UHGV virus genome: UHGV-1541349
Source: a virus
DNA length: 35,932 nt
Strand: one strand, 5' to 3'
Positions 82 through 31,646 of the stretch are shown piece after piece (the stretch's first letter is position 1; the number at the start of each line of letters is the position of its first letter). The notes under the pieces were generated by a model. It was not told where the DNA came from, did no database searches, and saw nothing but the letters and a program-made list of their open reading frames with translations. The translations under genes were made by a program, and so were the position numbers.

Positions 82-447
82 TTATTTGTCCAAGATTCTA
101 TCCATAATATTTCTTAGTTCTTGTCTGGTTGATTCTATTTTAGCAAGCAACGTTTTGATCAATGAGGGTGAAAAATCAACTGTGCGTGGATCGTTAGCTA
201 ACCACAGTTTAAGTAACCCACCAAGTCGACCAAGATCAGCATTTACTCGGCTAAGCTCTACAACCTGTTCAATATCTACAATAGACTCAACCTGATAACC
301 CATTGCTACTTTACGAATGAAGCTCGCTACACTTAAGCCAGATGCTTCTGCATTTTCCTGGATTTGCGCTTTTTCATCTGGCAAACAATAAACTTTAATT
401 GGTGTACTATTTTTTCTAGTCTGAGAAACGGTCATATCATTCTCCAT
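82..447 (-). CDS. Ribbon-helix-helix relaxosome accessory protein, MobC-like (putative)
   Basis: N-terminal RHH-like segment (IKVYCLPDEKAQIQENAEASGLSVASFIR) and C-terminal LGRLGG motif resembling the MobC family. Family assignment is from motif recall only. Any relaxase partner would lie beyond the window start. Confidence 0.4.
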   Translation of the reverse strand: MENDMTVSQTRKNSTPIKVYCLPDEKAQIQENAEASGLSVASFIRKVAMGYQVESIVDIEQVVELSRVNADLGRLGGLLKLWLANDPRTVDFSPSLIKTLLAKIESTRQELRNIMDRILDK

Positions 448-4989: not shown

Positions 4990-4997
4990 TTCATCCC

Positions 4998-5984
4998 TTA
5001 TTGTCTACTTTCTTGCCTACGCTTTATAGCCTTTACTAACAAATCGGTTGTAATATTGTTTGCATTATAAAGCACTGATTCTTTGGCAGCATCTTCACTT
5101 GCTCGCGTGATCTCCGCTGCACTTAGACCTGAAGCACTATCAATGATCTCACTCCAAAATAAATTACCGAGGTCAAAGACAGCGAGTCTCTGTTCAATAA
5201 GATTCCTGATTAGATTATCCTCAGGCCTTGTGAACGGTATAATATCGTCAAATCGTCTATATAAGGCGCGATCTAAAAGCTCTGGATGATTGGTTGCAGC
5301 TAAAACTATGCTCTCAGAATCATCCTGCTCTACAAACATTAAAAAAGAATTTAAGACCCTACGAATTTCTCCAACGTCATTCTGAGCGCCACGCTGAGTT
5401 CCTATAGCATCGAACTCGTCAAAAAAATATACAGCTCTTGTTTGCCGTATGTGGTCAAAAATTAAACGCAGCTTAGCTGCAGTTTCACCCATATAGCGAG
5501 TGATTAGATTATCTAAGACGACTGTATAAAGTGGTAGCTTTAACTCTGTAGCAATGACTGATGCGGACATTGTCTTACCAGTACCGGGAGGACCAGTGAA
5601 AAGAATTTTTCTTCTTGGAATAAGCCCAAACTCAGAAAGTTTATCTTTCTGTTTTTGTTCAAGCAGAACCTGATTCAATCTTTCCCTAACGCTTCCAGAA
5701 ATCACCAGATCTTGAAGATGTACTGGCTTGTTCGTTTGCTCAAGTAACCCCTTAAGATCACCATCAGGCTGCTTAACAAATGGTGTAAGTCGTTTTTCAA
5801 CTAAACCTACAGAACTCGTTGTTTTCTGATTTTTATCAACTAAGTTTTTTATATCATTAGCAAGCTTATGATGACCTTGCCTTGCTTCCTTAGCTGCCAC
5901 CTGCAAAGCAATAGAAAAGAAACGCTGATCATCACGATCAACGTGGCTTTTCAATAAAGCTTTGATCTGCTCTGCAGTAGCCAT
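4998..5984 (-). CDS. ietA: AAA-family ATPase (IetA-like)
   Basis: Walker A GPPGTGKT and Walker B VYFFDEFD in a classical AAA fold. First gene of a two-gene operon with the S8 peptidase. Confidence 0.7.
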   Translation of the reverse strand: MATAEQIKALLKSHVDRDDQRFFSIALQVAAKEARQGHHKLANDIKNLVDKNQKTTSSVGLVEKRLTPFVKQPDGDLKGLLEQTNKPVHLQDLVISGSVRERLNQVLLEQKQKDKLSEFGLIPRRKILFTGPPGTGKTMSASVIATELKLPLYTVVLDNLITRYMGETAAKLRLIFDHIRQTRAVYFFDEFDAIGTQRGAQNDVGEIRRVLNSFLMFVEQDDSESIVLAATNHPELLDRALYRRFDDIIPFTRPEDNLIRNLIEQRLAVFDLGNLFWSEIIDSASGLSAAEITRASEDAAKESVLYNANNITTDLLVKAIKRRQESRQ

Positions 5985-6719: not shown

Positions 6720-7325
6720 TCATCTGGCCTGAACTTCCGGAGGCGTAGGCCATTCAATATCCGGTGCGCTGGCGGTATCAACGCCCTCCAGCGCATCCAG
6801 ATAATCAAGCCAGGCATTATATTGTTCTTTTTCTGCGTCCTTCAGGCGACCCATTGCTGCTTTACCAGGCCATTGCTTACCATTCATAAAGTCATTGGCC
6901 TGGCTAATCAGCGCCTGTAGTTTTGTTGCCGCCACAGAAATATCATATGCGCGCTGAGCTTCGGGATCGGCAACCCATTTATTACCATCCCATTTATCAA
7001 ACTTTGTAGTTGGTGCTTCAAAAGTAAAGCCTTCACGCAACGGTCCAATATATTCGATAGTCACCGGCTTCCCGTTACTGGTGGTGTATGCTGTTTCTCC
7101 ACGATGGTCTTCTTTAAGCACCCACTCAGATCCAGAAAAAATAAATACCTTCCCTCCTGCTTCGGCCCCTGGTTCTATCGCCGTAGAGCATCCGGGCATA
7201 CTGACACCGATGTTAATAAACTCGTCAGACCATCCCATATATTCAGAAGTCACAGCGTCGTAGTAATAACAGCGGATTTCACCCGGTTCTGTTGCCAGTC
7301 CGTTTACATCGAAAACAGGTTTCAT
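6720..7325 (-). CDS. Tail fibre assembly protein (Tfa/gpU-like)
   Basis: About 200 aa immediately downstream of the tail fibre gene, Tfa-like composition. Last gene before the att fragment. Confidence 0.65.
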   Translation of the reverse strand: MKPVFDVNGLATEPGEIRCYYYDAVTSEYMGWSDEFINIGVSMPGCSTAIEPGAEAGGKVFIFSGSEWVLKEDHRGETAYTTSNGKPVTIEYIGPLREGFTFEAPTTKFDKWDGNKWVADPEAQRAYDISVAATKLQALISQANDFMNGKQWPGKAAMGRLKDAEKEQYNAWLDYLDALEGVDTASAPDIEWPTPPEVQAR

Positions 7326-8101
7326 TATTTAGCCCTTACAAGAAAGTTGAATGCAATATTTCTTGGGCGGCTTTCCGTGGATGTTCTGGCAACCCTCGAT
7401 AAATCAAAATTGAATGTAGAAGTTGATACGGTTCCGCCTGGTGCCGGGGGGGCCAGATTGCCCTGAACAACGCTGCGAGAAAATACCCCCAACGCATCTG
7501 TATTTACCCCTGTATAAAGATCAACGAGATAACCAGTAACATTCTGAATGGCGTCTCCCTGCGGTGAAAGCAGGGTTCGCCCATTATCTATCCCACGTCC
7601 ATCATCCCAGACACGCAGAAACTCTCCTCGCAGATCTGGCAATTTCAGGCCCGGCCAAACAAGGGCCAATTTTGGGTAAGTGGTAGGGGAAAATGTTGAG
7701 TCGTTAAACTTAAGGAACACCATGTCGGCCCATTCCGGCATCACGGTATTTGGCATGGCAGAAGACGGCCAAAAAAATGGAACTCCTATCGGTGGTGCAC
7801 CTGCTCCTAAACCAAGGTTTGTGGTAATCGCTGTCGCCAGCTTTGCCACCAGTCCATCAACGTCACCATCATCGAGCGCGTCCAGTTCGGCGTTCGCGAT
7901 AAACTGCCCCAGTACAGCCGCCATCGTCGACGGTTGGCGCAGCGCTTTACTGACCTGTGCGCTGGATGCTTTACCCGAGGAGAATCCTTTCTTCAGTGCG
8001 GTTAGCGTCTCCCATTCCTCCTGCGAGGTAACATTTGCATTAGCATCTGTCGCAAACGCTTTAAAATCATTAGTTCCAGCCATTAAAGTAATCTCCCCCA
8101 T
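7325..8101 (-). CDS. Tail fibre protein
   Basis: Gly/Ala-rich protein with a conserved fibre-type C-terminus (RPRNIAFNFLVRAK). Sits between the baseplate genes and Tfa. Confidence 0.6.
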   Translation of the reverse strand: MGEITLMAGTNDFKAFATDANANVTSQEEWETLTALKKGFSSGKASSAQVSKALRQPSTMAAVLGQFIANAELDALDDGDVDGLVAKLATAITTNLGLGAGAPPIGVPFFWPSSAMPNTVMPEWADMVFLKFNDSTFSPTTYPKLALVWPGLKLPDLRGEFLRVWDDGRGIDNGRTLLSPQGDAIQNVTGYLVDLYTGVNTDALGVFSRSVVQGNLAPPAPGGTVSTSTFNFDLSRVARTSTESRPRNIAFNFLVRAK

Positions 8102-8799
8102 GCGCCGTCATCAAAACCGGCGATGTATTCGTTATCCATGTCAAATCCAAAGAATTTTGTTCCTTCGGACGGTGTTTCGACCGAGGGTGTTTCAACGCTG
8201 CCAGCCCATACACCAGCAGCTTTAACGGTGAGATAACCCTGTTTGATAGCGGCTATCAGTTCGAGTGACACATCAGAAATATCAGTCTCGGGAAAAACCC
8301 AGACCGATATCGTCATGTCCTGGTTATCGACGATCTGCATCTTCAGTCCAGAGCCTGCGGTAGCAGCGTCAAGGATGGGAGGCAGAGAGTCGTTCCGACC
8401 ATCCCAGTTGTTGATAGCGATTTTCGCTTTCAGAATGATGCGGTACGTCTCATCACTCAGCGTCGTATAGCCAGAATCAGGATCATATGGCCCTTGCCAG
8501 ATGCCCTGGTCATATCCGAGCCCGTCAGTGTCCCAGCTGAAATAAACGCCGCTAATTGGCTGGCTGACTATACGACTACGCCCAATCCACAGGCCGAGGA
8601 TATCGAGTTGCACGCCAACCGCCGTATCGATATCGAAGGCTGTTACAAGCCCTGACATAGTGCTGGACACATCAATCAGCGGGCGGGTGCTCAGATCTAT
8701 ATGGTCAAAAAAGAGTGGCTTGGTAGCATGGTAGTTAGTGATCAGTTCGGTGTATTTGCTCATGAGGTCACCGTGATAGTGACGTGACTCGCAACGCAT
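8083..8799 (-). CDS. Baseplate/tail protein (Mu gp48-like)
   Basis: Called by position after the baseplate J-like gene in a Mu-type tail module. Confidence 0.45.
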   Translation of the reverse strand: MRCESRHYHGDLMSKYTELITNYHATKPLFFDHIDLSTRPLIDVSSTMSGLVTAFDIDTAVGVQLDILGLWIGRSRIVSQPISGVYFSWDTDGLGYDQGIWQGPYDPDSGYTTLSDETYRIILKAKIAINNWDGRNDSLPPILDAATAGSGLKMQIVDNQDMTISVWVFPETDISDVSLELIAAIKQGYLTVKAAGVWAGSVETPSVETPSEGTKFFGFDMDNEYIAGFDDGAWGRLL

Positions 8800-18662: not shown

Positions 18663-19289
18663 TTATTCTCCAAAAAAGGTGACTGGCGCTTCCACCAGCG
18701 ATTTAATGCCGTACTCGCGCACGACCTTCCGGCGCAGGCGCACCGTCATGTCGTAGCGGCGAACCCATTGCTGGTTGATAAGTTCGGGGAAAGGGGTCAG
18801 ACCGGTATAGTCGCCCAGAGACAAACCAAGCGCGTTCAGCTCAGCATTGTTTTGCGGGACAGATATGCCATCGCGAAAACGGGACGCATAAGACATACCA
18901 GCCGGGCCATAGAACGACGCCATGCACTCGAACGTTTCATGCCGCCAGAGCTGAGCGCCCTCGTCGGTCTGATTGGTGAATGCAGGGTTGTTATCAATGA
19001 GCAACCCGGTAACGCCAAACGCGCACCAGTTCGTTTCAACGGGTGGCAGTGGCGGCTGATTTTTCTGCCAGCGCGGACGAACCATTCCAGACGGCAAGCC
19101 GGAAACATTGCGCATCCACTGGCTTAACAGCCTGTCTAGCGCTTCGTCATAATCCGGATCGCCGCTGGTGGGTGTCAGCCAGCCGCGCTCTGTGCTGGTG
19201 TTATTGCTCAACGGGAGTTCCCCCATCAAACGGCAGTAATTCGCAATGTGCCTGGACGAAGCCAGCACCGTAAGCCGTGTACGGGTCAA
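18663..19289 (-). CDS. Tail completion / neck protein
   Basis: Called by position. Likely true start is the internal Met near 19226. Confidence 0.35.
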   Translation of the reverse strand: MTRTRLTVLASSRHIANYCRLMGELPLSNNTSTERGWLTPTSGDPDYDEALDRLLSQWMRNVSGLPSGMVRPRWQKNQPPLPPVETNWCAFGVTGLLIDNNPAFTNQTDEGAQLWRHETFECMASFYGPAGMSYASRFRDGISVPQNNAELNALGLSLGDYTGLTPFPELINQQWVRRYDMTVRLRRKVVREYGIKSLVEAPVTFFGE

Positions 19290-19590
19290 CGAATGTCACA
19301 CGATAATCACGGTTCTGGTACGTCACGATATCGGCGTCACGGCCAGTCTGCCCCTGCGTCAGCCGCTCAGTTGTCACGATGAGAATCGCGCCACTGATAA
19401 CCTGGCCGGACTGCATACGTCGGTTTTCCAGGGAGCGGTCAACAGTAACATCCCCGGCAAACTGCTTTTTAACTTCACTGTCGCTGCCGATCCCGTCCTC
19501 ATCCACCGTTTGCACTCGGCGTGTTACCCACAAATTGAAGTCGCAAAAATCGGGGTCAAAAAGCACGTCTGTTACATCAAGATTCGGCAT
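19201..19590 (-). CDS. Head-tail joining protein
   Basis: Called by position in the head-tail connector block. Confidence 0.35.
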   Translation of the reverse strand: MPNLDVTDVLFDPDFCDFNLWVTRRVQTVDEDGIGSDSEVKKQFAGDVTVDRSLENRRMQSGQVISGAILIVTTERLTQGQTGRDADIVTYQNRDYRVTFVDPYTAYGAGFVQAHCELLPFDGGTPVEQ

Positions 19591-20131
19591 CTTTATCCCT
19601 CACAACATGGGTAATGGCTCTGCGATATTGCCCGGTGTCGATTAGTGGTTTCACCAGATCGGTTCCGGGGGACTCACCAGCAGCGCGCCGCGCAAGTTCC
19701 TCTTTTGCCCCTTTGCGCCCACGGCGTGCGCGTGCTTCAACGGTGCTATCAGCAAGCGGTGTAAAGCCGGTAATGGTCATGTAACGCCTGACGCCATTCG
19801 CGGCCAGCGTTCCGGCGCGGTTAAGCGCTCTTTCCGCACCCGCCGCATTTCCATCAAGCGCAGCCTGCGCCGCTGCTTTGAGCTGCGGCACCGTCTGTTC
19901 CTCTACGGATTTAACGCCGGGGATCAGGTGCGGGCGTGGGGGTATGTTTTGCGCTGGTGAGCCGTATTCGTTGACGTAACCGATCCCGGCATTACCAAAC
20001 GGAACATCCTCACGCTCGCTGTCTTCTTCCGGGATGCCCACCAGCACATCCTTTTTGGTTAGCGACCGGAGCGCATCCAGAATGGCCTGAGCGTTATCAA
20101 CCCTCGTTGTTACACCACTTTTGAAACTCAT
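19577..20131 (-). CDS. Virion morphogenesis protein (Mu gpG-like)
   Basis: Called by position and size. Confidence 0.35.
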
Positions 20132-20634
20132 AGCTGGCGACCGCCCGCACCGAACATCGTGATCAGCTGATAAAATTCAGCGCCATATCGGGTGTTATTC
20201 CAGAAGCCTGCGTCAGGGTTTAGCGTCGCGCTGGTGTCATAGCTGACGCTTACCTTGTCAACGGACTTGGAGGACTGAACACCATTGGTTGAGCCACCCG
20301 GGCCGCCGACGAGCATTGCCCGGCTATCTGCCGCCCAGAGCGTCATGTAGTGAGCCACGAACAACTCGACAAAGTACGGAAACAACTCTTTGCCGGTGAC
20401 GTTTTCGCTCAGCAGCACATCAGCCAGATTCAGACGAAACTGGATTTGTGCTTCGGGATATTTGGCAGGGTCAGCAAACTGTGGAAAGTCGCGCCGAAAA
20501 TCACTTACTGTTGGCAGGCTTTGATTCTTTGGCATCTTTCGCCCCATTACCGCCAGTCTGGGCGGCAGCAATCTGCGCTTGCAGGCTGTCGTTCTGCTCT
20601 TGCAGCTTGAGCAGCGCTTCTCGCAGATCGGCAA
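20128..20634 (-). CDS. Head completion / connector protein
   Basis: Called by position. The N-terminus probably starts later (MPKNQSL near 20535) to reduce overlap with the upstream gene. Confidence 0.35.
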
Positions 20635-20890
20635 TCAACTGATCTTTATCGATAATCTGCTTATCTTTGTCGGCAATCTGAGCTTGCAGGCTGTCGATAA
20701 TGGGTTGCAGATCATCGGTGTCGCTAATCACGCTTTCGGAAAGCTCGGAGTGCGCCTGGGTGAACCAGTGCGACGCGACCTCTTCCGGTACGTTATGCCG
20801 TCCCCGGCCAAACTCCCTTTTTGACTGATCGCCGAGCGTCAGCGTAAACGGGGTGTGAACATGGATGGTAACCAGCTTTTCTTTCGCCAT
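20501..20890 (-). CDS. Coiled-coil head-associated protein
   Basis: Sits directly after the major capsid gene. Heptad-rich segment [43 protein letters not shown]. Confidence 0.35.
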
Positions 20891-20931
20891 TTTCAGTTCC
20901 CTTCTGGCCCCTTTCGGGGCCGTTCTGGTTA

Positions 20932-21873
20932 TCAGATACCGTCCACGTAGGACAGGGTTTCTTTGTACACTGGCTCAACCGCACCGAGCTTGCCGTAGTA
21001 GGTCGCAATCTGATACAGACCGCGATACTGGACAGGAACGCTCTGCAACGGCACCAGCGGATAGCGCACGTATTTCTTGTCGTTGGTGTAGGCGATCATA
21101 CGGTCTTTACCGCCAACCCCACGCCCTTTCAGCCATTTGACCGCTTTGATTTCAAGCGGAACGCCGTTCTGGTGGAAAGCGATAGTGTTCACAGCCAGAT
21201 AGGTCAGCAGTGACTGGTTACCCGCTTCGGAAACCTTACGGCTCGCCAGCAGTGAATACTGCTCTGGCGGAATGCGCAGATCAGAAGGCACGATGGAATA
21301 ACCGGATGCTGCCCAGGCATTAGACAGAATGCTGTTCACGCTATCGAGGATCTCGTCGTTGGTTGAGTTCGCCCAGGTCTTCGGCGCGTTGTTCAGCGTC
21401 ACACCGACGAGGTTTGCCAGACCTTTCAGGCCGAGTGCGTCATCACCGATGTAAACCTGCTCGTCGTTGTCCATCTGCCATTTGAGCTGCATCCCGTCGT
21501 ACTTCTGGGTATCAATCGGGCGGCCTACCTGCTGAGCAGCTGCCAGCTCTACAACGGTCCAGCCCAGTTCCATACCCCAGAGGTTCAGTGGATTGCCGTC
21601 TTTGCTGATATCCACGTTCACGCCAGCAATAGCGGTGGAGTCTTTGCCTACCCAGTTTTTACCATTCGGATTTGCACCAGTACCCGCAGCGGCGAAGCTG
21701 GTATTCGTCCAGCTGGAAATGTCATCTGCGATAGACACGTCTTCACGCAGTTGAATATCTCGGGTCCAGGTGTACCCCACCAGAGGCAGGTTCAGCGTCT
21801 GGTCGAGTCGCTCCAGCTCCCCGATGAGAAAGGCACCGGAGCTATCTACGGTTGCCTGATCAAAAGTAATCAT
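20932..21873 (-). CDS. Major capsid protein (Mu gpT-like)
   Basis: 313 aa, located after the protease/scaffold and a small head protein. Confidence 0.6.
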   Translation of the reverse strand: MITFDQATVDSSGAFLIGELERLDQTLNLPLVGYTWTRDIQLREDVSIADDISSWTNTSFAAAGTGANPNGKNWVGKDSTAIAGVNVDISKDGNPLNLWGMELGWTVVELAAAQQVGRPIDTQKYDGMQLKWQMDNDEQVYIGDDALGLKGLANLVGVTLNNAPKTWANSTNDEILDSVNSILSNAWAASGYSIVPSDLRIPPEQYSLLASRKVSEAGNQSLLTYLAVNTIAFHQNGVPLEIKAVKWLKGRGVGGKDRMIAYTNDKKYVRYPLVPLQSVPVQYRGLYQIATYYGKLGAVEPVYKETLSYVDGI

Positions 21874-21884
21874 TTGTCTGTTCC

Positions 21885-22388
21885 TTAAATCTTCCAGGAG
21901 ATTTCTACATTGCCGTTAGCGTCACCGGCCCCTGTGAATTCGGCGTTGGTCAGCGCCACGTTTTTGCCACTGACGGACGTGGACATGAAGCCGCCCAGCG
22001 GCACTTTTATGGATTCATCAGTGGAGACGACAACGTATACCGGGTCGCCTTTTTTGATGGTGCTGGCATCAAAATCAGAACCGAGATTAACGGTCATGTA
22101 GCCACGCTTCATGGCGTCACCCGGGAAGTTCTTATCCGTCCCCACCTGGCGAACCATGTCTGGCTGCGATGTGGTCGGATACGGACGAACGTAGATCCCC
22201 TTCACCTTGTCGGCGGTGTCACCGTCCGCCAGCGGCACGAAAAAGCCGTCAGCGTCATATTTGCCAGCCAGACCATAGGCAGCGAAGGCGTTAGCGGATT
22301 TAAGGATCACCGGTTCGACGGTTAAGTCCTGCGGGCGAGAGATAGCCCCGGCAATGCCAACAGGCATCCGGTACAGATATGCAGTCAT
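21885..22388 (-). CDS. Head structural/decoration-type protein
   Basis: 167 aa directly upstream of the major capsid gene. Called by position. Confidence 0.4.
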   Translation of the reverse strand: MTAYLYRMPVGIAGAISRPQDLTVEPVILKSANAFAAYGLAGKYDADGFFVPLADGDTADKVKGIYVRPYPTTSQPDMVRQVGTDKNFPGDAMKRGYMTVNLGSDFDASTIKKGDPVYVVVSTDESIKVPLGGFMSTSVSGKNVALTNAEFTGAGDANGNVEISWKI

Positions 22389-22392
22389 TGGA

Positions 22393-23625
22393 TTATCCTT
22401 TGCGGTTAGACCAGAAGTCGGCGTTTTGTTTGTTCAGGGAAGCGATGCTTGTCATGCCCATATTTGGACGTTGTGCATCGCCCGTGGTGCTGCGGGTGTT
22501 TCGCCCTTTGGCAATCTCTGACACGGCGTTAAACGCCATATCTACCGATTGCTTGGGCAATTTGCGGATATCCGCATCACCGACAACCTGGCGAACCAGT
22601 GTTTTGTCAGCGGCGGACAGCACATCACGTTTGAACGCGGTCGGTTTCACCTTACGGCTCAGATCGATACCCGGAACGATAACTTCGGCACGATAAGCAG
22701 CGTCACCGGTAATCGTGGTTTCCTCTTCGTCGTCCTCACCGTCGCCGGTAGGGTCTTTGTTATCTTTGCCGTCAGGCTTATCGTCGTTATCGCCCGTTGC
22801 AGTACCTTCCAGCTTAGCCAGCAGGGCTTTGAGCAAGGTTTTGATATCGTCCTCGCCGTCGCCGGTTGGCTCTCCGCCCATTTCCGGCTTTTTGTCCGGC
22901 AATGGTTGTTGCGGTGAAAGATTAATGTTGAGGTTAACGCCGCTCGGCAGATCCCCTTCATCGCCCGTTACCGCCGCTGGCGCAGAGTCCAGCAGTTCGT
23001 TCATGGTGTCAGCATCACCCGTTTTGATGGCCGTGCGCATGCGGGTCCACCAGCTTTTCTTTTGATTTGCCATTGTGTCTCTGTCTCCAATTGCACAACG
23101 ATTTCCGGCTCTGCCTTTAGGGACAAGAGCCACATGGTTTCCGGTAATATCGACCTGCTCGGCTTTTCCGGGTTCGGTCTGCTCGTACTCAGCGTCATAG
23201 CCGCACGACACTTCGCGCAGACCATCTTCGATCAGCTGAATGGCGCTTTCGTCTTTGACGATAAGGTCAGCCAGCATCAAATCAGACTGATCACCAGTCC
23301 CGCGCCGAACGTTCTGAAGATGCCCGACCGCAAGCTCTTTCCAGTTCTCGGGGTTGACCAGCCGCACATTCCCGTTTTCATCTTCAGGATGCAGGATCGT
23401 GATGCTCATCCCTTCGAATGAGGCGAGCGTGGCCGGATGGAATACCTGATCAGGAGAGCGCGTTACGACTATCTCGCCGAGCTTGTCGGGTTTGAGGTTT
23501 GGCAGATCGGCAGCGCCGTAAAGCTGCTTACCCGTTCGACCTATCGGCACGTCTTTGCACAGCAGCGAGCCGTCAGCCAGCTGATAACGGGTTTCCCCCA
23601 GCCGGGTATTGAAAAAATATTTCAT
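22393..23625 (-). CDS. Head maturation protease/scaffold-like protein
   Basis: 410 aa with an acidic, Gly/Asp-rich low-complexity middle region typical of scaffolds. Follows the Mu F-like gene. Confidence 0.45.
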   Translation of the reverse strand: MKYFFNTRLGETRYQLADGSLLCKDVPIGRTGKQLYGAADLPNLKPDKLGEIVVTRSPDQVFHPATLASFEGMSITILHPEDENGNVRLVNPENWKELAVGHLQNVRRGTGDQSDLMLADLIVKDESAIQLIEDGLREVSCGYDAEYEQTEPGKAEQVDITGNHVALVPKGRAGNRCAIGDRDTMANQKKSWWTRMRTAIKTGDADTMNELLDSAPAAVTGDEGDLPSGVNLNINLSPQQPLPDKKPEMGGEPTGDGEDDIKTLLKALLAKLEGTATGDNDDKPDGKDNKDPTGDGEDDEEETTITGDAAYRAEVIVPGIDLSRKVKPTAFKRDVLSAADKTLVRQVVGDADIRKLPKQSVDMAFNAVSEIAKGRNTRSTTGDAQRPNMGMTSIASLNKQNADFWSNRKG

Positions 23626-23639
23626 GGTTTACCTGCGAT

Positions 23640-24413
23640 TCAGGCGAGATAAGAATGAGGGTTGGGGAAGACGATTTCTTTGTAACAGCGGCAGTTCGGG
23701 AGCTCGCCAGCGTGACCGGTCATGCCGTCAAGCGTTGGAGGTCGGCCCCATTCGACAAACTTCCCTTCCATCTCCCGATGAGAATGCCGGACGTCGCCAT
23801 CTTCGGCTGTACGCCAGATATAACCATTCGAGCCGATTGACAGCGCACGCGCCTGATCCAGTGCACCGGTTGCGCGCCCAAGCTCAGTCCGGGCGATAAG
23901 GTTCGCTCGTGAGCGTGACACGTCACCGGAAGCAGCTATCTCTTTCGCGAATGGCTCAGCGCGGCCACCAGTTACTACAGCCTCGATGGCCTTGTTCTGA
24001 ATGTCATACACCCGATCGGCGGCCTCAAGAGGCAGAGATTTGATGTACTTAATTTGCTCGGCGACGATGGATTTCATCACCTGGCCTACCGGGGCGCGGT
24101 CGACCATGTTGCGTAGTTCTGCGCTGATGTTCCGGCTGTGCTGACGCCACTGCTTTTCATTCTGGCGCGCAATGTCGGCGGTGAAGCTCTCAGCAACCTT
24201 AGTCGCCCAGGGGGTGATGATTTCGCTGTAGCGCTCCAGCGCATCCATTATTTCGGTGACGCTATCGTTTGAACCATCGTAGCGACCATTTACGATATCC
24301 CCGACCGCCCGCGCTATCTGCCGTAGGCTCGTTCGATATCGGATCTCCGCCTGGCGGCTCTGGCGGTTTGTCGCCAAGTTCGCCGATGCCTGGCGGCGCT
24401 TCGTCTTCGGCAT
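23640..24413 (-). CDS. Head morphogenesis protein (Mu gpF / SPP1 gp7 family)
   Basis: C-terminal hallmark IWRTAEDGDVRHSHREMEGKF...GELPNCRCY. The ORF overlaps the portal 3' end by about 150 nt, so the start may be internal (Met near 24248). Confidence 0.6.
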   Translation of the reverse strand: MPKTKRRQASANLATNRQSRQAEIRYRTSLRQIARAVGDIVNGRYDGSNDSVTEIMDALERYSEIITPWATKVAESFTADIARQNEKQWRQHSRNISAELRNMVDRAPVGQVMKSIVAEQIKYIKSLPLEAADRVYDIQNKAIEAVVTGGRAEPFAKEIAASGDVSRSRANLIARTELGRATGALDQARALSIGSNGYIWRTAEDGDVRHSHREMEGKFVEWGRPPTLDGMTGHAGELPNCRCYKEIVFPNPHSYLA

Positions 24414-25731
24414 TCTCGATATCCTCGTCGGTAATGGATGCCCCGATGCCGGTGACGTCAGAGTTTTCGCGCAGGTCGGTCATCGCCGCCTTACGCGTCA
24501 TCAATCCGTCGCCCAGCGCGGTACTGATCGCGTTGGTGGTGTTTACGGCCACCGTTGATCGGTCAACGTCTGACATTTGCCATAGCGGGTTAAACTCAAA
24601 CGTGAAATCGTCCGGCAGCGGCTTTCCGAGTTCCGAGCGGTGCATAATGTCCAGTATCCGGCGCATCGGCAACCGTAAGCGGCGCTCCTGCAATGAGCTC
24701 ACCCGGTCGTAATAGTTGGCGAGGTCTGCATCACCAGTAGAGAAGCCTTTCGGGGATTGACCGAACAGGCGGACCAGCGGGATACCAACGGCACCGCTGA
24801 TCTGCTCAGCAAACTGCGAAAGAATGTCATCCAGACCACTAAAGCTGTACTGGTGGGTTTCGAACTTATCCCGCGAGTCCATGAGCGTCATACCTTCATT
24901 GCTCTGGAACTGGCGGATCAGGTCGATGTTCTTCAGCAACGCTTCGAACGCCGGGCCTCCAAGCGCGATAAGCTCGCGCAACTTCTCCACGCTATAGGTA
25001 CGCAGATGCGCTTTATAGACCAGCTGCGCCGCGCCGACAGTAGCGCTATCGAACGCAGTAAGCCGATCCCAGATACGCTCTACAACCGACATTCCCCATT
25101 CGTTTTCGGTCATCTTCTGCTGGAATGGCAGCGTGACGCCATCAAAGCGGATCAGGCGGCTGTGATGGATGCGCCAGGCCGGAATGCCCGTTGCGGTGGT
25201 CACCACGTCGTAAAACTCAGGCTTGCCGAGGTCCGGCCCCATCTCTTTAATGCGGCGTGTCAGCACCGGGTTAATCATCCAGCGGTCGAGCGGGAGAATG
25301 CCCTTAAACTTGCCCTCGCCAATGGTTTCGAGTCGCAGCGGGGTCATTGGTGCCTGCCCCTCGATCATGATGAAGCCGACCGCGCCGCCGTAGAGGCGCG
25401 ACCATTTCAGCACGTCGTTCAGCGCATCCCAGATCTGCAACTCATCCAGTTGCGCTTCGAGGGTGCCACGGTCTTTGGCGTCAATCTCCGAAGTGATGCG
25501 AATGCCCTTTCGGGTCATATCGTCCGGGATAGCGTCGACCGCTTCACCGATAACCCACGAACCGCGATATGACCATTCCACCAGCATGCGGTTGCGGCTG
25601 GTGAAGTTCGCCCGGTAGGTCGATGCTGAATGCTGGTTAGGCGTCTGCATCCCAACGCGGGCGACTAAGTTCTCGTAGCCGTCAGCGGTGGCCTGTGCCG
25701 TTCGCTGAGAGGATTGCTTGTTTCGTGCCAT
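24262..25731 (-). CDS. Portal protein
   Basis: 489 aa immediately downstream of the large terminase gene. Confidence 0.55.
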   Translation of the reverse strand: MARNKQSSQRTAQATADGYENLVARVGMQTPNQHSASTYRANFTSRNRMLVEWSYRGSWVIGEAVDAIPDDMTRKGIRITSEIDAKDRGTLEAQLDELQIWDALNDVLKWSRLYGGAVGFIMIEGQAPMTPLRLETIGEGKFKGILPLDRWMINPVLTRRIKEMGPDLGKPEFYDVVTTATGIPAWRIHHSRLIRFDGVTLPFQQKMTENEWGMSVVERIWDRLTAFDSATVGAAQLVYKAHLRTYSVEKLRELIALGGPAFEALLKNIDLIRQFQSNEGMTLMDSRDKFETHQYSFSGLDDILSQFAEQISGAVGIPLVRLFGQSPKGFSTGDADLANYYDRVSSLQERRLRLPMRRILDIMHRSELGKPLPDDFTFEFNPLWQMSDVDRSTVAVNTTNAISTALGDGLMTRKAAMTDLRENSDVTGIGASITDEDIENAEDEAPPGIGELGDKPPEPPGGDPISNEPTADSAGGRGYRKWSLRWFKR

Positions 25732-27359
25732 CAGGCCTGTCTCCCTAGCAGCTCCCAGATGTTCAGGGCTGAATTCATTGGCGCGTAGCTGATCATCACC
25801 GAGTCGGCGAGGTTCGGCGACTTGGTGCCATCAGGCTGTTTATCAACAACGATTTTCCCCACGCCGTTAATGGAGTAGGTCGGCTGCGACAGCTCGATGA
25901 TGAGTTTGTCTTTGCTCGCCATGGCGCTGCTGATTGAGATGATTTCGTCCGGGTTGTAGGCCATGCCCTCAACCACGGCGCGATAGGTGTTCTGGAAAAG
26001 CTTGCGTAGCCACCACCAGCTCTGGGCCTTGGCGTTGGCGAAGAAGTCCTTGTTCAGGCGTGCGGCCTGTCCGTTGTCCCCGCGCACCGCTTCATCGTCC
26101 GGATCAAATACCGCGCCGCTACCACGAAACGGTGTGGCGAGTATTGACGGTCGGCGCGCAGCGTTACGCAGTTCGTTGATGGCGCGTGCATCGCCGCGAA
26201 CGCCAGCGCCCAGGCCGTCCTCGTCGAAGCGAAATTCTTCGAGGTTGTCCTGTTCGCAAAAGCCGAAGACCTTCTCAACGGACTGGTAAATGTCGCTGCC
26301 CACGCCGGACCATTCACGCACGTTCTCCAGAAGGAAGCCGTGACGGGTCGAAAAGGCATTTTTGTCCCGGCCTTCGTCGGCGACGTCCATCGCGCCCAGT
26401 CGCTTGCCCGTTGGCTGAATACCAAGTTTGATATGCGCGTCGACGGCAGCCTGTACCCAGTCGGACGGGATCAGGACGCCTTCCGCAGATGCGCTGTAGT
26501 TCAGGTCAAGTTCCTGCGCCACCACCACCGGATTGTCGATTTTCTCGCACTCCCTGCGATACCACTCTTCATCCTTGCGAGGATCATCCCGCCAGTGGAA
26601 TGTGAATACCGGTATCTTCCCGCCGTGACGCTTCTGCGCGAACGGGTTCGCCATGCCATTAACCGAGCTCAGGTCAATACGGCAACGGGTGGTTTGCGAC
26701 AGCGCCGCATCAATCAACAGAGGACGCTGGAGGAATGCAGCTTCATCCACCAGGTAGAGCGTGGTACGGTCACCACGACCGATATTGTCGCCAGCCTCGC
26801 CTTTGATGACCGCGCCAGTATCGGGAAACTCAACGCGCATATACGGCGCATGCTTCTTCTCGTCCCACGAACCACGAAACTCGATGGGCAGTGTTTCCAC
26901 GAACTTTCGCGCCTTCCAGAACAGCGCCTTCGGGTCACCGGTGCTGTCGACGTATTCCTCTTTACGGGAGCCGAAACCGATAACCATTTCTTTGTTGAAG
27001 AGACAAAGCGAGCAGGCCAGCCCGATCGCGGTCCAACTGAGCCCCATTTCGCGGCTCTTTTCGGTGATGCCGTTCTCCAGTCGTTCGCGCCGCTCCATGA
27101 TCCAGTGAATCCACTCTTCCTGTTTCGGGAACAGCAGAAAAGGGATGGTGACCGGCAGGCCATAATCGATGTTACGCGGGTCAGTAGTCATACCCCAGTC
27201 GATGATGAACTGTGCCGGGTTGGTGCGATAAAACTGCTTTAGCGCTGGCAGCATTTCAGGGTTCTGGCGAATGCGCTGTAAGCGCTCCATCCGCCATTCA
27301 AAAACCATCTGGTAATCAGGGTTTCTGAAATCGAATTCAAACGGGAGAGGCATGATCAC
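25731..27359 (-). CDS. Terminase large subunit
   Basis: 542 aa with an N-terminal ATPase-like region and a C-terminal nuclease-like region (LYLVDEAAF). Position is upstream of the portal. Confidence 0.65.
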
Positions 27360-27829
27360 CCCATCATCTTGCGGTAAATCTCTGCGGCCTGATCTGCAGT
27401 GAGATTGGTCGTCTCGGTCTTGATCGGGCCGCCATCCTTGCCGGTGCTCTCAACCTTCAGCTTATTGGTGTAAGCGTCGCCAACCTCTTTCGCGGCCTGT
27501 TCAATCAGCTGCGCCGTCAGGGAGAAGTTTTTCATCCCCTCGGTTTTGGTTGCCATGCGGTCAAGCACGCGGAGGCGATAGGATTTGTTCGCTATCGGAA
27601 TGTCGCTGGTTTCGGTCAGGAACCGTTCGCGCGTCGCGTGGAACATCTCGATCCACTTTTTGGCGAGCGTCTTACCGCTGGCCTTCGTGGGGTCGTGAGA
27701 TTCAGCCTGCTGGCGGGTGATCTTGATCCCAAATTCTTTTTGGACAGCCTCGACCACCTGCGATGGCGTGTCATAGCACGCAAGCGACTGAATGATGAAG
27801 GCTTTCACATCAGGTTTTAATGCAGCCAT
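27356..27829 (-). CDS. Terminase small subunit (putative)
   Basis: 157 aa, stop overlaps the large terminase start. Confidence 0.45.
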
Positions 27830-28541: not shown

Positions 28542-29096
28542 TCAGCCAATAAGTAATTCCGGCTGCGTTACCTGCATGATGTGCTCATGTTCGAGCTCCA
28601 GGACGCGCTTCTCTTTCTTCCGCTCGTTCATCAAACGGCTTCCGATCGTGCCTTTCAGCTTTGAGCGCGTTTCTTTGATGGCGTAGCGATGCTGCAATTC
28701 TTCACCCATCGCCATGCGCCGGTTTAGCTGCTCGGCCATCCAGTTGAAGGCATTGATGTAACACTCCTTCACTGCGGCAGCTGTTTTGCCAGTGAATCCC
28801 ATCACTAGCATCATGCATCCGTCGCGGGTGATGTTATACATAGGCTGAACATCGCCATTTTTATCAATGAAATCAATGGGCGCAAAATTGCGCTGGGTGA
28901 AGTCATCGGAGCATTTCAGGTTACGTATGGCACGCAAAACGTCTTTGTGTCGCTTGCCAAAGTAATCCGCCACCTTGAGTGATGTGGTGATTATCTTGTT
29001 GTCGAGGGTCGTGACCATTTCGCGGAAGTCGAAGGCCGGAATAACTGACGGATTATTCATAGCGTCTTTACCTTTTAGAAAGTGAGCCTGTCTCAC
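28542..29096 (-). CDS. Phage regulatory protein, Rha family
   Basis: N-terminal TTSLKVADYFGKRHKDVLRAIRNL signature of the Rha family. Probable start at the internal Met (MNNPSV) near 29060. Confidence 0.6.
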   Translation of the reverse strand: MRQAHFLKGKDAMNNPSVIPAFDFREMVTTLDNKIITTSLKVADYFGKRHKDVLRAIRNLKCSDDFTQRNFAPIDFIDKNGDVQPMYNITRDGCMMLVMGFTGKTAAAVKECYINAFNWMAEQLNRRMAMGEELQHRYAIKETRSKLKGTIGSRLMNERKKEKRVLELEHEHIMQVTQPELLIG

Positions 29097-29265: not shown

Positions 29266-29703
29266 TTATTTCAGGCATTGCGTCCTGATGTATTCCTGCA
29301 GGTAGTTAACCTGCGCGGTTATCCTGTCGATTCCGCTTCGGAGACGGTAATAATTGAGTTCAGCATCTGCTGTAAGTCTTGGGCTTTCTCCATCGCCCAT
29401 GCTGCTGGCTCCGGTCGTTGACTTTGCACAGGTGGCGGCGACTTGCAGGCGCTTACGACCAGCAGAAACATCAGCACGGAGGCTTTCGATAGTCGCGTTA
29501 GCATCAGCAAGCTCCTTTGTATATCTGGCGTCGAGTTCTGCTACGTCACGTTGACGCTTCTGCATATCAGCGATAGTGGATGCGGCTTTGTCGCGCTGCT
29601 CTTTGTAGGCGATGGCGTTATCACGGTAATGATTAACAGCCCATGACAGGCAGACGATGATGCAGATAACCAGAGCGGAGATAATCGCGGTTACTCTGCT
29701 CAT
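29266..29703 (-). CDS. Rz: i-spanin Rz
   Basis: N-terminal transmembrane segment plus coiled-coil, directly after the endolysin, with an embedded Rz1 frame. Confidence 0.8.
29319..29510 (-). CDS. Rz1: o-spanin Rz1 (lipoprotein embedded out of frame in Rz)
   Basis: Signal peptide with lipobox (LLVVSAC) followed by a Pro-rich mature part, entirely within Rz in a different frame. Confidence 0.7.
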
Positions 29704-30176
29704 ACCTCAATCTCTCTGACCGTTCCGCCTGCTTCTTTGAATTTTGCAATCAGGCTGTCAGCCTTATGCTCGAACTGTCCATAACCAGCCCCGGGCAACG
29801 AAGCCCAGATATTGCTGCAACGGTCGATTGCCTGACGGATATCACCGCGATCAATCATCGGCAAAGCGCCACGCTCTTTAATCTGTTGCAGTGCCACAGC
29901 GTCCTGGCTTTTCGGAGAGAAGTCTTTCAGGCCAAGCTGCTTACGGTAGGCATCCCACCAACGGGAAAGAAGCTGGTAACGTCCGGCGGCTGTTGATTTG
30001 AGTTTGGGGTTTAGCGTGACAAGTTTGCGAGGGTGATCGGAGTAATCAGTGAATAGCTCTCCGCCTACAATGACGTCATAACCATGATTTCTGGTTTTCT
30101 GTCGTCCGTTATCAGTTCCCTCTGACCACGCCAGCATATCGAGGAACGCCTTACGTTGATTATTGATTTCCACCAT
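29700..30176 (-). CDS. R: Endolysin, lambda R-type lytic transglycosylase
   Basis: Protein is near-identical to phage lambda R as recalled ([35 protein letters not shown]...). Confidence 0.9.
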
Positions 30177-30483
30177 CTTCTACTCCGGCTTTTTTAGCAG
30201 CGAAGCGTTTGATAAGCGAACCAATCGAGTCAGTACCGATGTAGCCGATGAACACGCTCGTTATATAAGCGAGATTGCTACTTAGTCCTGCGAAGTCGAG
30301 AAGGTCACGAATGAACCAGGCGATAATGGCGCACATCGTTGCGTCGATTACTGTTTTTGTAAACGCACCGCCATTATATCTGCCGCGAAGGTACGCCATT
30401 GCAAACGCAAGGATTGCCCCGATGCCTTGTTCCTTTGCCGCGAGAATGGCGGCTAACAGGTCATGTTTTTCTGGCATCTTCAT
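30160..30483 (-). CDS. S: Holin, lambda S-type
   Basis: Near-identical to lambda S, including the dual-start MKMPEKH motif. Three transmembrane segments. Confidence 0.9.
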
Positions 30484-30725
30484 GTCTTACCCCCAATAAG
30501 GGGATTTGCTCTATTTAATTAGGAATAAGGTCGATTACTGATAGAACAAATCCAGGCTACTGTGTTTAGTAATCAGATTTGTTCGTGACCGATATGCACG
30601 GGCAAAACGGCAGGAGGTTGTTAGCGCAACCTCTTGCCACCCGCTTTCACGAAGGTCATGTGTAGAAGGCCGCAGCGTAACTATCACTGATGAATTCAGG
30701 ATAGCCAGTGGCTACGGCTCAGTTA

Positions 30726-30801
30726 TGGTGCTGGTTAACGGACTTGAACCGCTACCCATTCGCTTACAAGGCGACTGCTCTACCATTGGAGCTAAACCAG
30801 C
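30726..30801 (-). tRNA. Phage-encoded tRNA, anticodon UGU (Thr-like)
   Basis: 76 nt ending in CCA. Manual fold gives 7-bp acceptor, D and T arms, and anticodon loop CTTGTAA. Anticodon assignment is manual and unverified. Confidence 0.55.
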
Positions 30802-30806
30802 ATGTT

Positions 30807-30881
30807 TGGCGGGACAGCGTGGACTCGAACCACGATAAGAAGGTTAACAGCCTTCCGTAATGACCTTTATACGACTGACCC
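30807..30881 (-). tRNA. Phage-encoded tRNA, anticodon GUU (Asn-like), one acceptor-stem mismatch
   Basis: 75 nt ending in CCA. Perfect anticodon stem GAAGG/CCTTC with loop CTGTTAA, T-stem CGTGG/CCACG, and a T.T mismatch at acceptor pair 4-69. Confidence 0.5.
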
Positions 30882-30885
30882 AAAT

Positions 30886-30927
30886 AAAAAAAGCCACCGT
30901 TGCAACTTAAGAGTCACTAACGGCAGC
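30886..30927 (-). terminator. tR'-like terminator of the short late leader RNA, downstream of Q
   Basis: Minus-strand 9-bp stem (two G.U pairs) followed by a T7 run. A TTGACA hexamer lies at 30961-30966 upstream. Promoter not mapped. Confidence 0.4.
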
Positions 30928-30972
30928 TTATGCGAATAGTGTTGCTCATTTGCTCAATGATGTCAACACGTT

Positions 30973-31461
30973 CTATGCTACATGTTTAATTTTCTCTACA
31001 CGTTTCCGGTTTTTAAACGCACTATCCAGAACTGGGTAAATCATAAACAACGAAGCATTGAGGATTTCGTCAACTTCCCGGCGACAGGTTGCGAGCGATG
31101 GTTTTTGAATACGCCCGCCGCCCCGGCATAACATCTTGCGAGGTCTTGCGACACGATGATAGTAAGATGCAATGGCATGCTTGGAAGATCCATGAGCGTA
31201 GTAGCTGAGGAGGATGCCAAAGGCTTTCTTGTCAATGCACATGACGGAATCGACGACCTGAGAAATCAACATTCCATCATCATCATTACACATTGGCCTT
31301 GTCATAACTCTTCCCGGCTCTACGCTCTCCATGAACTTCGCTATTACGCTGCTCATGCGCTTTTCCAGACGACCTGAATAAACCCATGCGCCCCACAGTT
31401 CAAGCCAGCCATTCAGCCAATCGTGCTGTTCTTTGGTGAGGTTTATTTCTCTTATGCTCAT
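30973..31461 (-). CDS. Q: Late-gene antitermination protein Q (non-lambda type)
   Basis: 162 aa with Cys-rich motifs, positioned immediately upstream of the tR'-like terminator, tRNAs and lysis cassette. Confidence 0.6.
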   Translation of the reverse strand: MSIREINLTKEQHDWLNGWLELWGAWVYSGRLEKRMSSVIAKFMESVEPGRVMTRPMCNDDDGMLISQVVDSVMCIDKKAFGILLSYYAHGSSKHAIASYYHRVARPRKMLCRGGGRIQKPSLATCRREVDEILNASLFMIYPVLDSAFKNRKRVEKIKHVA

Positions 31462-31646
31462 CGTCTTCCCCTCTTGCCCTGTTTGACCATCAGGACGCCG
31501 TTAACTATTACGTGACGCTCGCCTTTGCTGTCTCGGTTGTACTTGAGCACTGTTCCTCTTGCGCAGGAAAGCATCCTCGCCACTTCGGTCTGATTGCCTC
31601 GTGTCTGGATAAGAAGCTCTGGTATCGTTTGAATTGTGGCGTTCAT
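31458..31646 (-). CDS. ninH: NinH-like protein
   Basis: Resembles lambda NinH (TIPELLIQTRGNQTEVARMLSCARGTVLKY...IVNGVLMV). Confidence 0.6.
   Translation of the reverse strand: MNATIQTIPELLIQTRGNQTEVARMLSCARGTVLKYNRDSKGERHVIVNGVLMVKQGKRGRR

Follow-up and report, generated by a model that had tools for sequence, protein, structure and literature searches.

ARAGORN called exactly two tRNA genes in the window, by which we mean the whole 35,932-bp stretch of the virus genome UHGV-1541349 that was analysed. Both genes lie on the minus strand, with tRNA-Asn(GUU) first and tRNA-Thr(UGU) second in the direction of transcription. The gene order on this strand is Q, the pR'/QBE/tR' control region (30966..30882), tRNA-Asn, a spacer, tRNA-Thr, a 242-nt leader that includes a 62-bp junction, and the lysis genes S, R and Rz (Table 1). 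An earlier, sequence-only reading of this locus had recognized two tRNA genes with UGU and GUU anticodons here. ARAGORN and Rfam both call them, and neither gene was missed by the tRNA finder. Their location was given correctly; the strand and the order had to be corrected.

Table 1 Features of the Q-to-Rz region, in window positions.
Feature	Position	Strand	Basis
Q antiterminator gene, phage-21 type, 162 aa	30973..31461	minus	identity to phage 21 Q; Pfam PF06530
pR' late promoter	30938..30966	minus	positions carried over from OL657228 annotation
pR' -35, TTGACA	30966..30961	minus	OL657228 mapping
Q-binding element (QBE), ATTGAGCAAATGAGCA	30958..30943	minus	OL657228 mapping
pR' -10	30943..30938	minus	OL657228 mapping
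pR' transcription start	30931	minus	OL657228 mapping
Sigma-dependent pause element	30930..30924	minus	OL657228 mapping
tR' intrinsic terminator of the short pR' transcript	30882..30929	minus	hairpin fold; terminator annotated in phage 21 and Sf6
tRNA-Asn(GUU), 75 nt	30807..30881	minus	ARAGORN; Rfam RF00005; encoded CCA, G73
Inter-tRNA spacer AACAT, 5 nt	30802..30806	minus	read off the sequence; 5/5 identical to phage 21
tRNA-Thr(UGU), 76 nt	30726..30801	minus	ARAGORN; Rfam RF00005; encoded CCA, A73
62-bp junction	30664..30725	minus	common to phage 21, lambda (nt 44945-45006), Sf6, HK446 and 720R6
Lambda-type late-mRNA leader upstream of S	30484..30663	minus	178/180 to lambda
S holin/antiholin, dual start MKM..., lambda type	30160..30483	minus	Pfam PF05106; 320/324 nt to lambda
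R endolysin (transglycosylase), lambda/HK97 type	29700..30176	minus	nucleotide identity
Rz i-spanin, HK97/Sf6 type	29266..29703	minus	Pfam PF03245
Rz1, embedded in Rz	~29319..29504	minus	reading frame in ORF list

Both tRNAs scored above the gathering score of 29 bits for Rfam RF00005 (cmscan). The tRNA-Thr reached 61.5 bits (E 3.8e-12), and the tRNA-Asn 55.3 bits (E 1.8e-10), that is, 26 bits above the threshold. The anticodon loops, CUGUUAA in tRNA-Asn and CUUGUAA in tRNA-Thr, have U33 and a purine at position 37, and the T-loops, GGTTCGAGTCC and GGTTCAAGTCC, both agree with GTTCRA. The genes end in G73-CCA (tRNA-Asn) and A73-CCA (tRNA-Thr). Recognition by AsnRS depends on G34U35U36 and G73, and recognition by ThrRS on G1-C72, C2-G71, G35 and U36. 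At the sequence level, the former elements are intact in tRNA-Asn and the latter are present in tRNA-Thr.

The cmscan alignment gave a G27·A43 mismatch in tRNA-Thr, which shortens the anticodon stem; the acceptor stem of this tRNA is paired throughout. In tRNA-Asn, the NC line of the alignment marked U4·U69, which interrupts the acceptor stem, and U13·U22 in the D-stem. The T.T acceptor-stem mismatch seen in the sequence-only reading is thus real and corresponds to U4·U69 of tRNA-Asn(GUU). Folding of the late transcript gave a terminator hairpin, a U-run and then two cloverleaves. The tRNA genes do not mark an integration site; this was ruled out by their position within the late operon, where they separate Q from S.

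The late control region upstream of the tRNAs is of the phage 21 type. The Q gene is identical to phage 21 Q in 475 of 489 nt, and its product in 158 of 162 aa, with a Pfam PF06530 (Phage_antitermQ) match of 87 bits (1.1e-24). A protein comparison detected no similarity between the window Q and lambda Q, so the earlier statement that Q is not of the lambda type holds. All 91 nt that follow the Q stop codon, up to the last base of tR', are identical to phage 21 (91/91). The promoter features were transferred from the phage 21 record OL657228 (window position = 32476 - L001 position). Its curated annotation gives the order pR' -35, QBE (ATTGAGCA/AATGAGCA), -10, transcription start, pause, terminator, tRNA-Asn and tRNA-Thr. 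The window QBE consists of the same two parts, ATTGAGCA and AATGAGCA, between the -35 and the -10, which places it in the phage 21 module.

A tR'-like terminator upstream of the tRNAs had also been proposed, and folding of ~30931..30882 bore this out. The resulting hairpin has 17 bp and a free energy of -20.2 kcal/mol (z = -6.1), and it runs into U7; none of 200 shuffled sequences folded as well. The T-run abuts the first base of tRNA-Asn. A simple promoter and terminator scan of 30400..31100 gave no matches, and the Q-to-S interval showed no other consensus promoter. The scan missed pR'21 because of its weak -10, and tR' because its 4-nt loop in a bulged 17-bp stem lies outside the scan rules; both elements were therefore placed by the phage 21 annotation and by folding.

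The 62-bp junction starts at the first base after the CCA of tRNA-Thr. It is identical to 720R6 in 62 of 62 positions, to phage 21 in 61 and to lambda in 56, and it was found in most of 119 tRNA-bearing loci from IMG/VR. The homology with lambda begins at lambda nt 44945, just past the tRNA-Thr CCA, and runs free of indels to S. Window ~30724..30484 corresponds to lambda nt 44945..45185, with identities of 56/62 over the initial 62 nt and 178/180 over what follows. The leader proper has the same 178/180 identity to lambda, Sf6 and 720R6, and is unrelated to phage 21.

The sequence-only reading had described leader, S, R and Rz as nearly identical to lambda. The alignment supported this for the leader, for S (320/324) and for R, where 435 of 456 nt over 30159..29704 match lambda and 447 of 456 match HK97. 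It failed for Rz beyond its first 64 nt. This short stretch is common to all phages compared (63/64 in phage 21, 63/64 in lambda, 62/64 in HK97, 61/64 in Sf6), whereas the remainder of Rz matches lambda in only 230 of 401 positions, versus 360/374 for HK97 and 355/374 for Sf6.

Taken along its length, the region resembles phage 21 over 31476..30664 and Sf6/720R6 over 30930..29273. The two stretches overlap by 267 bp, which comprise the terminator, both tRNAs and the junction. The crossover can be placed anywhere in these 267 bp, since the overlap is identical in all of the phages compared. Aligning the Q-to-S interval with phage 21, lambda, Sf6, HK97, HK446 and 720R6 thus resolved the boundaries of the modules, as the earlier reading had hoped, but not a single point of exchange. 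Modular recombination at the late control region, which that reading had proposed, fits the data well: a phage-21-type Q module is joined to lambda-type lysis genes. Its description of the tRNAs as inserted does not fit. They belong to a conserved block of tR', tRNA-Asn, tRNA-Thr and the 62-bp junction, which is identical to phage 21 (61/62 in the junction) and replaces a 161-bp segment of lambda. The arrangement is better stated as a conserved cassette that fills the interval from tR' to the junction, where lambda has a tRNA-less segment of similar length. By sequence comparison, the locus is a phage-21-type late-control module with its usual two-tRNA cassette, fused via the 62-bp junction to a lysis cassette of the lambda/HK97 type. 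It offers a clean example of how one 267-bp block links swappable Q modules (21, Sf6 and lambda types) with swappable lysis modules (lambda S, S21 and others).

The closest relatives each share a different part of this arrangement. Phage 21 is identical to the window in tRNA-Asn (75/75), spacer (5/5) and tRNA-Thr (76/76), but its next genes are those for the S21 pinholin, a SAR endolysin and a lambda-like Rz; in the window, the cassette is followed by a leader, S and R of the lambda type and by an Rz of the HK97 type. Sf6 (Casjens et al. 2004; AF547987), whose record reads “tRNA-Asn ... tRNA-Thr ... similar to phage 21”, and its relatives 720R6, HF4s and Bas106 share with the window the 3' half of the terminator, both tRNAs, the junction, the leader, S, R, Rz and Rz1, at ~94% identity over 2.2 kb. 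The tRNA-Asn is identical (75/75) in Sf6 and 720R6. Sf6 differs in having its own Q type (411/490 nt), promoter and QBE, unlike the Q21-type elements of the window, and it is a P22-like podovirus, whereas the structural genes of the window are those of a SEN34/Omnitron-like myovirus.

HK446 (JQ086372) has an identical tRNA-Asn and tRNA-Thr, with one difference in the spacer, and shares the junction, leader and S. Its cassette, however, follows Q, pR' and tR' of the lambda type, and there takes the place of the 161-bp lambda segment from the tR' T-run to the junction. Lambda itself (NC_001416, nt 43886-46427) has the same gene order and matches in junction, leader and S over 44945-45509 and in R at 95%. 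It differs in Q family, pR', qut and tR', carries no tRNA, and has another type of Rz after the first 64 nt. A similar niche, in the late leader after Q, pR' and tR', is occupied in Stx-converting lambdoid phages by the ileZ-argN-argO or ileX tRNA genes, downstream of Q. The SfI paper cites Schmidt et al. (1997). By description, the Stx phages are alike in position, but carry other tRNAs, for rare Ile and Arg codons, and a flanking stx.

The arrangement is real and ordinary, being already known from publications on phage 21, Sf6, SfI and ST64T. The SfI paper (2013) describes the two-tRNA arrangement directly for SfI and cites it for phage 21, Sf6, ST64T and PS3. The late region of phage 21 goes back to Guo, Kainz and Roberts (1991, PMID 1704887), as referred to in the SfI paper and in OL657228. 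A megablast search with the Q-to-S interval matched 176 phage records. Many of these are annotated with tRNA-Thr and tRNA-Asn, including phage 21, Sf6, SfI, BTP1 and mEp506. The locus thus changes nothing in principle, the arrangement having long been in the literature and being routinely annotated.

Of 5426 complete E. coli genomes, 369 (~7%) carried the tRNA pair. In IMG/VR, the 119 loci retrieved by the tRNA-Asn anticodon arm had the cassette behind Q21-type, Sf6-type and other Q genes, and the lysis genes after it were lambda S, S21 or others. In 15 of them, Q and lysis genes were combined exactly as in the window. Retrieval by the junction alone, which is unbiased as to tRNA sequence, gave 80 loci: 37 had Asn + Thr, 16 had the lambda-type segment and 27 had something else.

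With regard to expression, the 91/91 nt match of the control region allows the control logic of phage 21 to be transferred to the window. Transcription would start from pR' at 30931 and, without Q, RNA polymerase would end at tR' after ~45 nt. With Q21 loaded at the QBE, the polymerase would pass tR' and transcribe both tRNA genes, the leader, S-R-Rz and the structural genes. Both tRNAs would then be released from the 5' portion of the late transcript, with RNase P making the 5' cuts and host 3'-processing enzymes generating the 3' ends. Addition of CCA should not be needed, as it is encoded in both genes. Excision from the late transcript is the simplest route, because the tR' T-run abuts the first base of tRNA-Asn. 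We infer that the cassette is expressed by Q-dependent read-through and processing.

What the tRNAs may do is suggested by published work on phage P2. The OLD nuclease of P2 kills by amputating the anticodon arm of the host tRNA-ThrU, and phage tRNA-Thr(UGU) alleles rescue (Govande et al. 2025, NAR, PMC12445682). The tRNA-Thr of phage 21 protects and is near-completely resistant at Site 1, with a shorter anticodon stem and C28U/G42A; a change of the CNG motif without shortening of the stem did not protect tRNA-ThrU (Govande et al. 2025, PMC12445682). In published work, a tRNA-Thr identical to that of the window restored growth and ACA decoding. The tRNA-Thr(UGU) of HK446 is strongly active against OLD and rescues both HK97 and HK542, but not lambda (bioRxiv 10.64898/2026.07.10.737580). 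All these OLD rescues used plasmid-expressed tRNAs.

The tRNA-Thr of the window is identical to the phage 21 allele (76/76) and to the HK446 allele, both shown by experiment to counter OLD, either its toxicity or its defence. It has the UGU anticodon and A37, and its CNG positions read UCG (28-30) and CGA (40-42), where thrU has CUG and CAG. Owing to the G27·A43 mismatch, the anticodon stem has four pairs instead of five, in agreement with the published tRNA-Thr21. The gene would thus supply a nuclease-resistant substitute for host tRNA-ThrU, the sole reader of ACA. Late translation could be sustained after TOPRIM tRNases of the OLD family, such as P2 Old, and possibly the AriB nuclease of PARIS, have destroyed the host tRNA. 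The cassette may also protect the phage that carries it in its native context. Against such native protection, lambda was not rescued by the tRNAs tested in the 2026 preprint.

For AriB, the known determinants are U39, position 41 and U16 (PARIS; PMC11464382, PMC12409363). In E. coli, the corresponding stretch (U36-A-A-U39/C40, then A41) reads UAAUCA in thrU and UAAUCC in asnT, both with U16. In the phage tRNAs it reads UAAGCG (Thr) and UAACCU (Asn), both with A16. Both window tRNAs therefore differ from those of the host at positions 39, 41 and 16. The anticodon stem of tRNA-Asn lacks U39, has lost both CNG motifs and retains its full 5 bp. The Thr and Asn tRNAs of T5, which contribute to PARIS escape, are likewise without U39. 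From these changed determinant bases, tRNA-Asn may evade OLD or PARIS. Most likely, it would stand in for host tRNA-Asn, which both nucleases cut as a secondary substrate, in the same way as tRNA-Thr does for tRNA-ThrU. The full-length anticodon stem speaks against OLD resistance of tRNA-Asn, whereas resistance of ThrU needed both the motif change and the shortening.

The window shares the UGU and GUU anticodons with known anti-defence tRNAs of phages, namely the T5 tRNA-Lys/Thr/Asn against PARIS AriB (PMC11464382, PMC12409363) and the phage tRNA-Thr(UGU) against P2-OLD (PMC12445682). It also shares with them substitutions at the anticodon-stem determinants 39 and 41, in the CNG motifs and at position 16, as well as the shortened stem in tRNA-Thr. 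It differs in that a temperate lambdoid phage carries only two tRNAs, in a Q-controlled late leader instead of a large tRNA cluster, and without tRNA-Lys. A resistant tRNA-Lys(UUU), part of the AriB-escape set, was absent from the window. The window may be a partial phage genome; the annotations of the complete genomes of 21, Sf6 and SfI list these two tRNAs and no others. OLD and AriB cut several tRNAs. With no phage copy here of tRNA-Lys(UUU), the main target of AriB, the pair alone should not defeat the PARIS system of strain B185. In the literature searched, we found no published AriB tests of 21-type tRNAs.

Taken together, we consider it probable that the locus is a phage 21 late module with its two-tRNA cassette, expressed under Q and serving as a nuclease-resistant replacement of host tRNAs. 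Earlier genome papers, the SfI paper among them, proposed codon supplementation. Codon use in the window lends this some weight. In the window ORFs, ACA occurs 13.3 times per 1000 codons, versus 5.4 in a K-12 sample of 42 genes, and accounts for 19-20% of the Thr codons, versus 10%. Asn codons number 48-50 per 1000, versus 37.7 in the K-12 sample. For SfI, 17.3% ACA in the phage versus 7.1% in the host was reported (SfI paper, 2013), and in the coat gene of phage L 24 of the 25 Asn codons are AAC (phage L paper). With ACA ~2.5 times commoner than in the E. coli sample, the phage leans heavily on the ACA tRNA, which also speaks for a resistant replacement of tRNA-ThrU. The Q21 gene itself contains an ACA codon, and a tRNA made only after Q may come too late if the host tRNA has by then been lost, a point against the nuclease-resistant replacement.

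Codon supply could coexist with counter-defence, but as the only role of the cassette, with no defence system involved, we regard it as unlikely. Against OLD, extra host tRNA-ThrU protects little if at all, but the phage allele does protect, so the sequence of the allele matters and not only its dose. Changes at the exact nuclease determinant positions in both tRNAs would be left unaccounted for. The SfI authors saw no codon bias that accounts for tRNA-Asn (SfI paper, 2013), and in the late genes of the window AAC makes up 53% of the Asn codons, below the 63% of the host. RNA processing as the main role is very improbable. The tRNAs would here recruit RNase P and RNase E and strip off the terminator leader, so that the mRNA starts at a 62-nt hairpin that sets the stability of S-R-Rz. 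Indeed, the tRNAs sit between tR' and a strongly folding junction RNA (-27.7 kcal/mol, z = -5.4), whose start coincides with the tRNA 3' end in all lineages examined. The commonest junction polymorphisms fall at unpaired positions of the hairpin. Lambda, however, retains the junction without any tRNA, and covariation in the hairpin was no better than in shuffled controls (74/500, 234/500), the sequences being 96% alike.

The least probable reading, and a far-fetched one to us, is that one or both tRNAs, especially tRNA-Asn, are nonfunctional relics that ride along with the Q21 module. It draws on the acceptor- and D-stem mismatches of tRNA-Asn, on a few loci with 1-nt indel alleles, and on lambda and other relatives managing without the cassette. 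Strong conservation argues against it. Identical tRNA-Asn copies make up 91 of 122, and in the junction-retrieved sample 32 of 42 copies are identical to the window. The variants in this sample are two loop changes, one pair-restoring U69-to-G and two 1-nt-indel alleles. Variants of tRNA-Thr are mostly loop or wobble changes, with a compensatory change from G5-C68 to U5-A68 at 5 loci in the first sample and at 3 in the junction sample. These natural variants indicate selection for a working fold. Further points against decay are the Rfam score of tRNA-Asn, its intact GUU anticodon, G73 and CCA end, the persistence of the cassette behind at least three Q types and in 369 E. coli genomes, and the experimental activity of the Thr tRNA.

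The U4·U69 mismatch also occurs in phage 21, Sf6, 720R6 and HK446, and in ~113 of 120 IMG/VR copies; the exceptions are five U·C, one U·G and one G·U. Judging by this distribution, it is a near-fixed, ancestral and tolerated state and not a recent lesion. The suggestion in the sequence-only reading that the second tRNA may be impaired is therefore unlikely for tRNA-Asn, as U4·U69 is kept and the substitutions are confined to loops or restore pairs, two indel alleles apart.

Under the preferred reading, that of a Q-controlled supply of nuclease-resistant tRNAs, the 267-bp block carries an anti-defence tRNA into ~7% of the complete E. coli genomes. The function of tRNA-Thr has already been published (2025-2026).

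There are hints that the tRNA-less leaders derived from tRNA-bearing ones. One IMG/VR contig (L137), the only such contig, has a weak T-arm/acceptor remnant of 20 bits, below the threshold, that ends exactly at the junction start. At the equivalent place in lambda, no tRNA relic was matched by Rfam, even at E values up to 10, and we hence make no claim of a tRNA retained in lambda. Directly before the junction start, lambda reads ...CAGCACAACCCA and the cassette ...CCAGCACCAT, each followed by AACTGAG. We tentatively entertain, as possible though not favoured, a wider reading in which the two tRNAs of the cassette serve as a dedicated defence against TOPRIM nucleases that cut the anticodon arm (P2 Old-like and PARIS-like). 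Its tRNA-Asn would be resistant to cleavage, having no CNG motifs and neither U39 nor U16, U4·U69 would be a possible evasion feature, and the lambda leader would have decayed from a tRNA-bearing ancestor. This last part draws on the remnant in L137 and on the fact that all lineages have the junction start exactly where a tRNA 3' end lies. If true, it would help to explain the exclusion of lambda by P2, while relatives of lambda hold the remedy at the same locus.

[quoted passage not shown] In nine of the loci gathered through the anticodon arm we found a hybrid tRNA-Thr(UGU), with a 5' part corresponding to the phage allele and, from position 26 on, a 3' part similar to thrU, the host tRNA-Thr(UGU) gene of E. 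coli. This composition suggests, at the sequence level, that the host gene contributed to the hybrid alleles through recombination or gene conversion. The 3' part was identical to E. coli thrU in one of the nine, and in most copies the anticodon stem was weakened, its 3' strand reading TCATC. In another locus (sequence GCTGGTTTAGCTCAATGGTTGGAGCGCCTTCCTAAGAAGG...) tRNA-Asn was followed by a different tRNA in place of tRNA-Thr. An Asn+Leu(UAA) variant is on record for phage L and ST64T, and this locus probably represents it. The tRNA-Thr of the window carried a C at position 14, in the D-loop, and five or six related loci had a T. An A at this position is nearly universal in tRNAs.

Some of the contigs without tRNA genes kept a remnant of the T-arm and 3' acceptor (GGTTCGATTCCGG...CCACAACCC), located at 4389..4447 in contig L137 and upstream of the junction in L129 and L133. 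Its 3' end coincided exactly with the start of the junction, and with 20 bits (E = 1e-4) it weakly matched the tmRNA model in the tRNA-like domain. The lambda sequence ...CAGCACAACCCA may be a further-decayed version of the same remnant.

The junction itself, 62 nt long, is part of the late leader, corresponds to lambda nt 44945-45006 and is common to lambda, 21, Sf6 and HK446. A long hairpin was predicted for it (-27.7 kcal/mol, z = -5.4); a covariation test had little power, because the input sequences were 96% alike. A homology break was internal to Rz. Its first 64 nt are common to lambda, 21, HK97 and Sf6, and the remainder is of the HK97/Sf6 type. The annotation of Sf6 marks a similar feature in Rz, the “boundary sequence” bsq7.

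In the structural genes, Citrobacter phage Omnitron shared 95% identity with the window and the myovirus-like Salmonella phage SEN34 about 84%, whereas the late control and lysis genes were lambdoid, of the 21, lambda and HK97 types. Judged by these similarities, the phage is a cross-morphotype mosaic.

Features of the window discussed in the text, with positions in nt.
Feature	Position	Strand	Remark
tRNA-Thr(UGU)	30726..30801	(-)	
Junction	30664..30725	(-)	
Rz	29266..29703	(-)	
Rha-family regulator	28542..29096	(-)	between Rz and small terminase gene
Putative phage metallopeptidase	27861..28517	(-)	between Rz and small terminase gene
Small terminase gene	27356..27829		
Structural genes	7800..25000		
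Tail-fibre assembly gene	6720..7325		Caudo_TAP
AAA ATPase, 328 aa	4998..5984	(-)	PADLOC IetA match, 5.5e-77
S8 subtilase, 829 aa	2500..4989	(-)	PADLOC IetS match, 2.9e-34
ORF with NikA-like mobilisation-protein domain	82..447	(-)	domain match, 4.7e-24

The ATPase and subtilase genes form an IetAS-type pair (2500..5984), which from its gene content looks like a prophage-borne defence moron. The pair lies directly downstream of the tail-fibre assembly gene. The NikA-like ORF is found at the left edge of the window, beyond the part matching phage structural modules.
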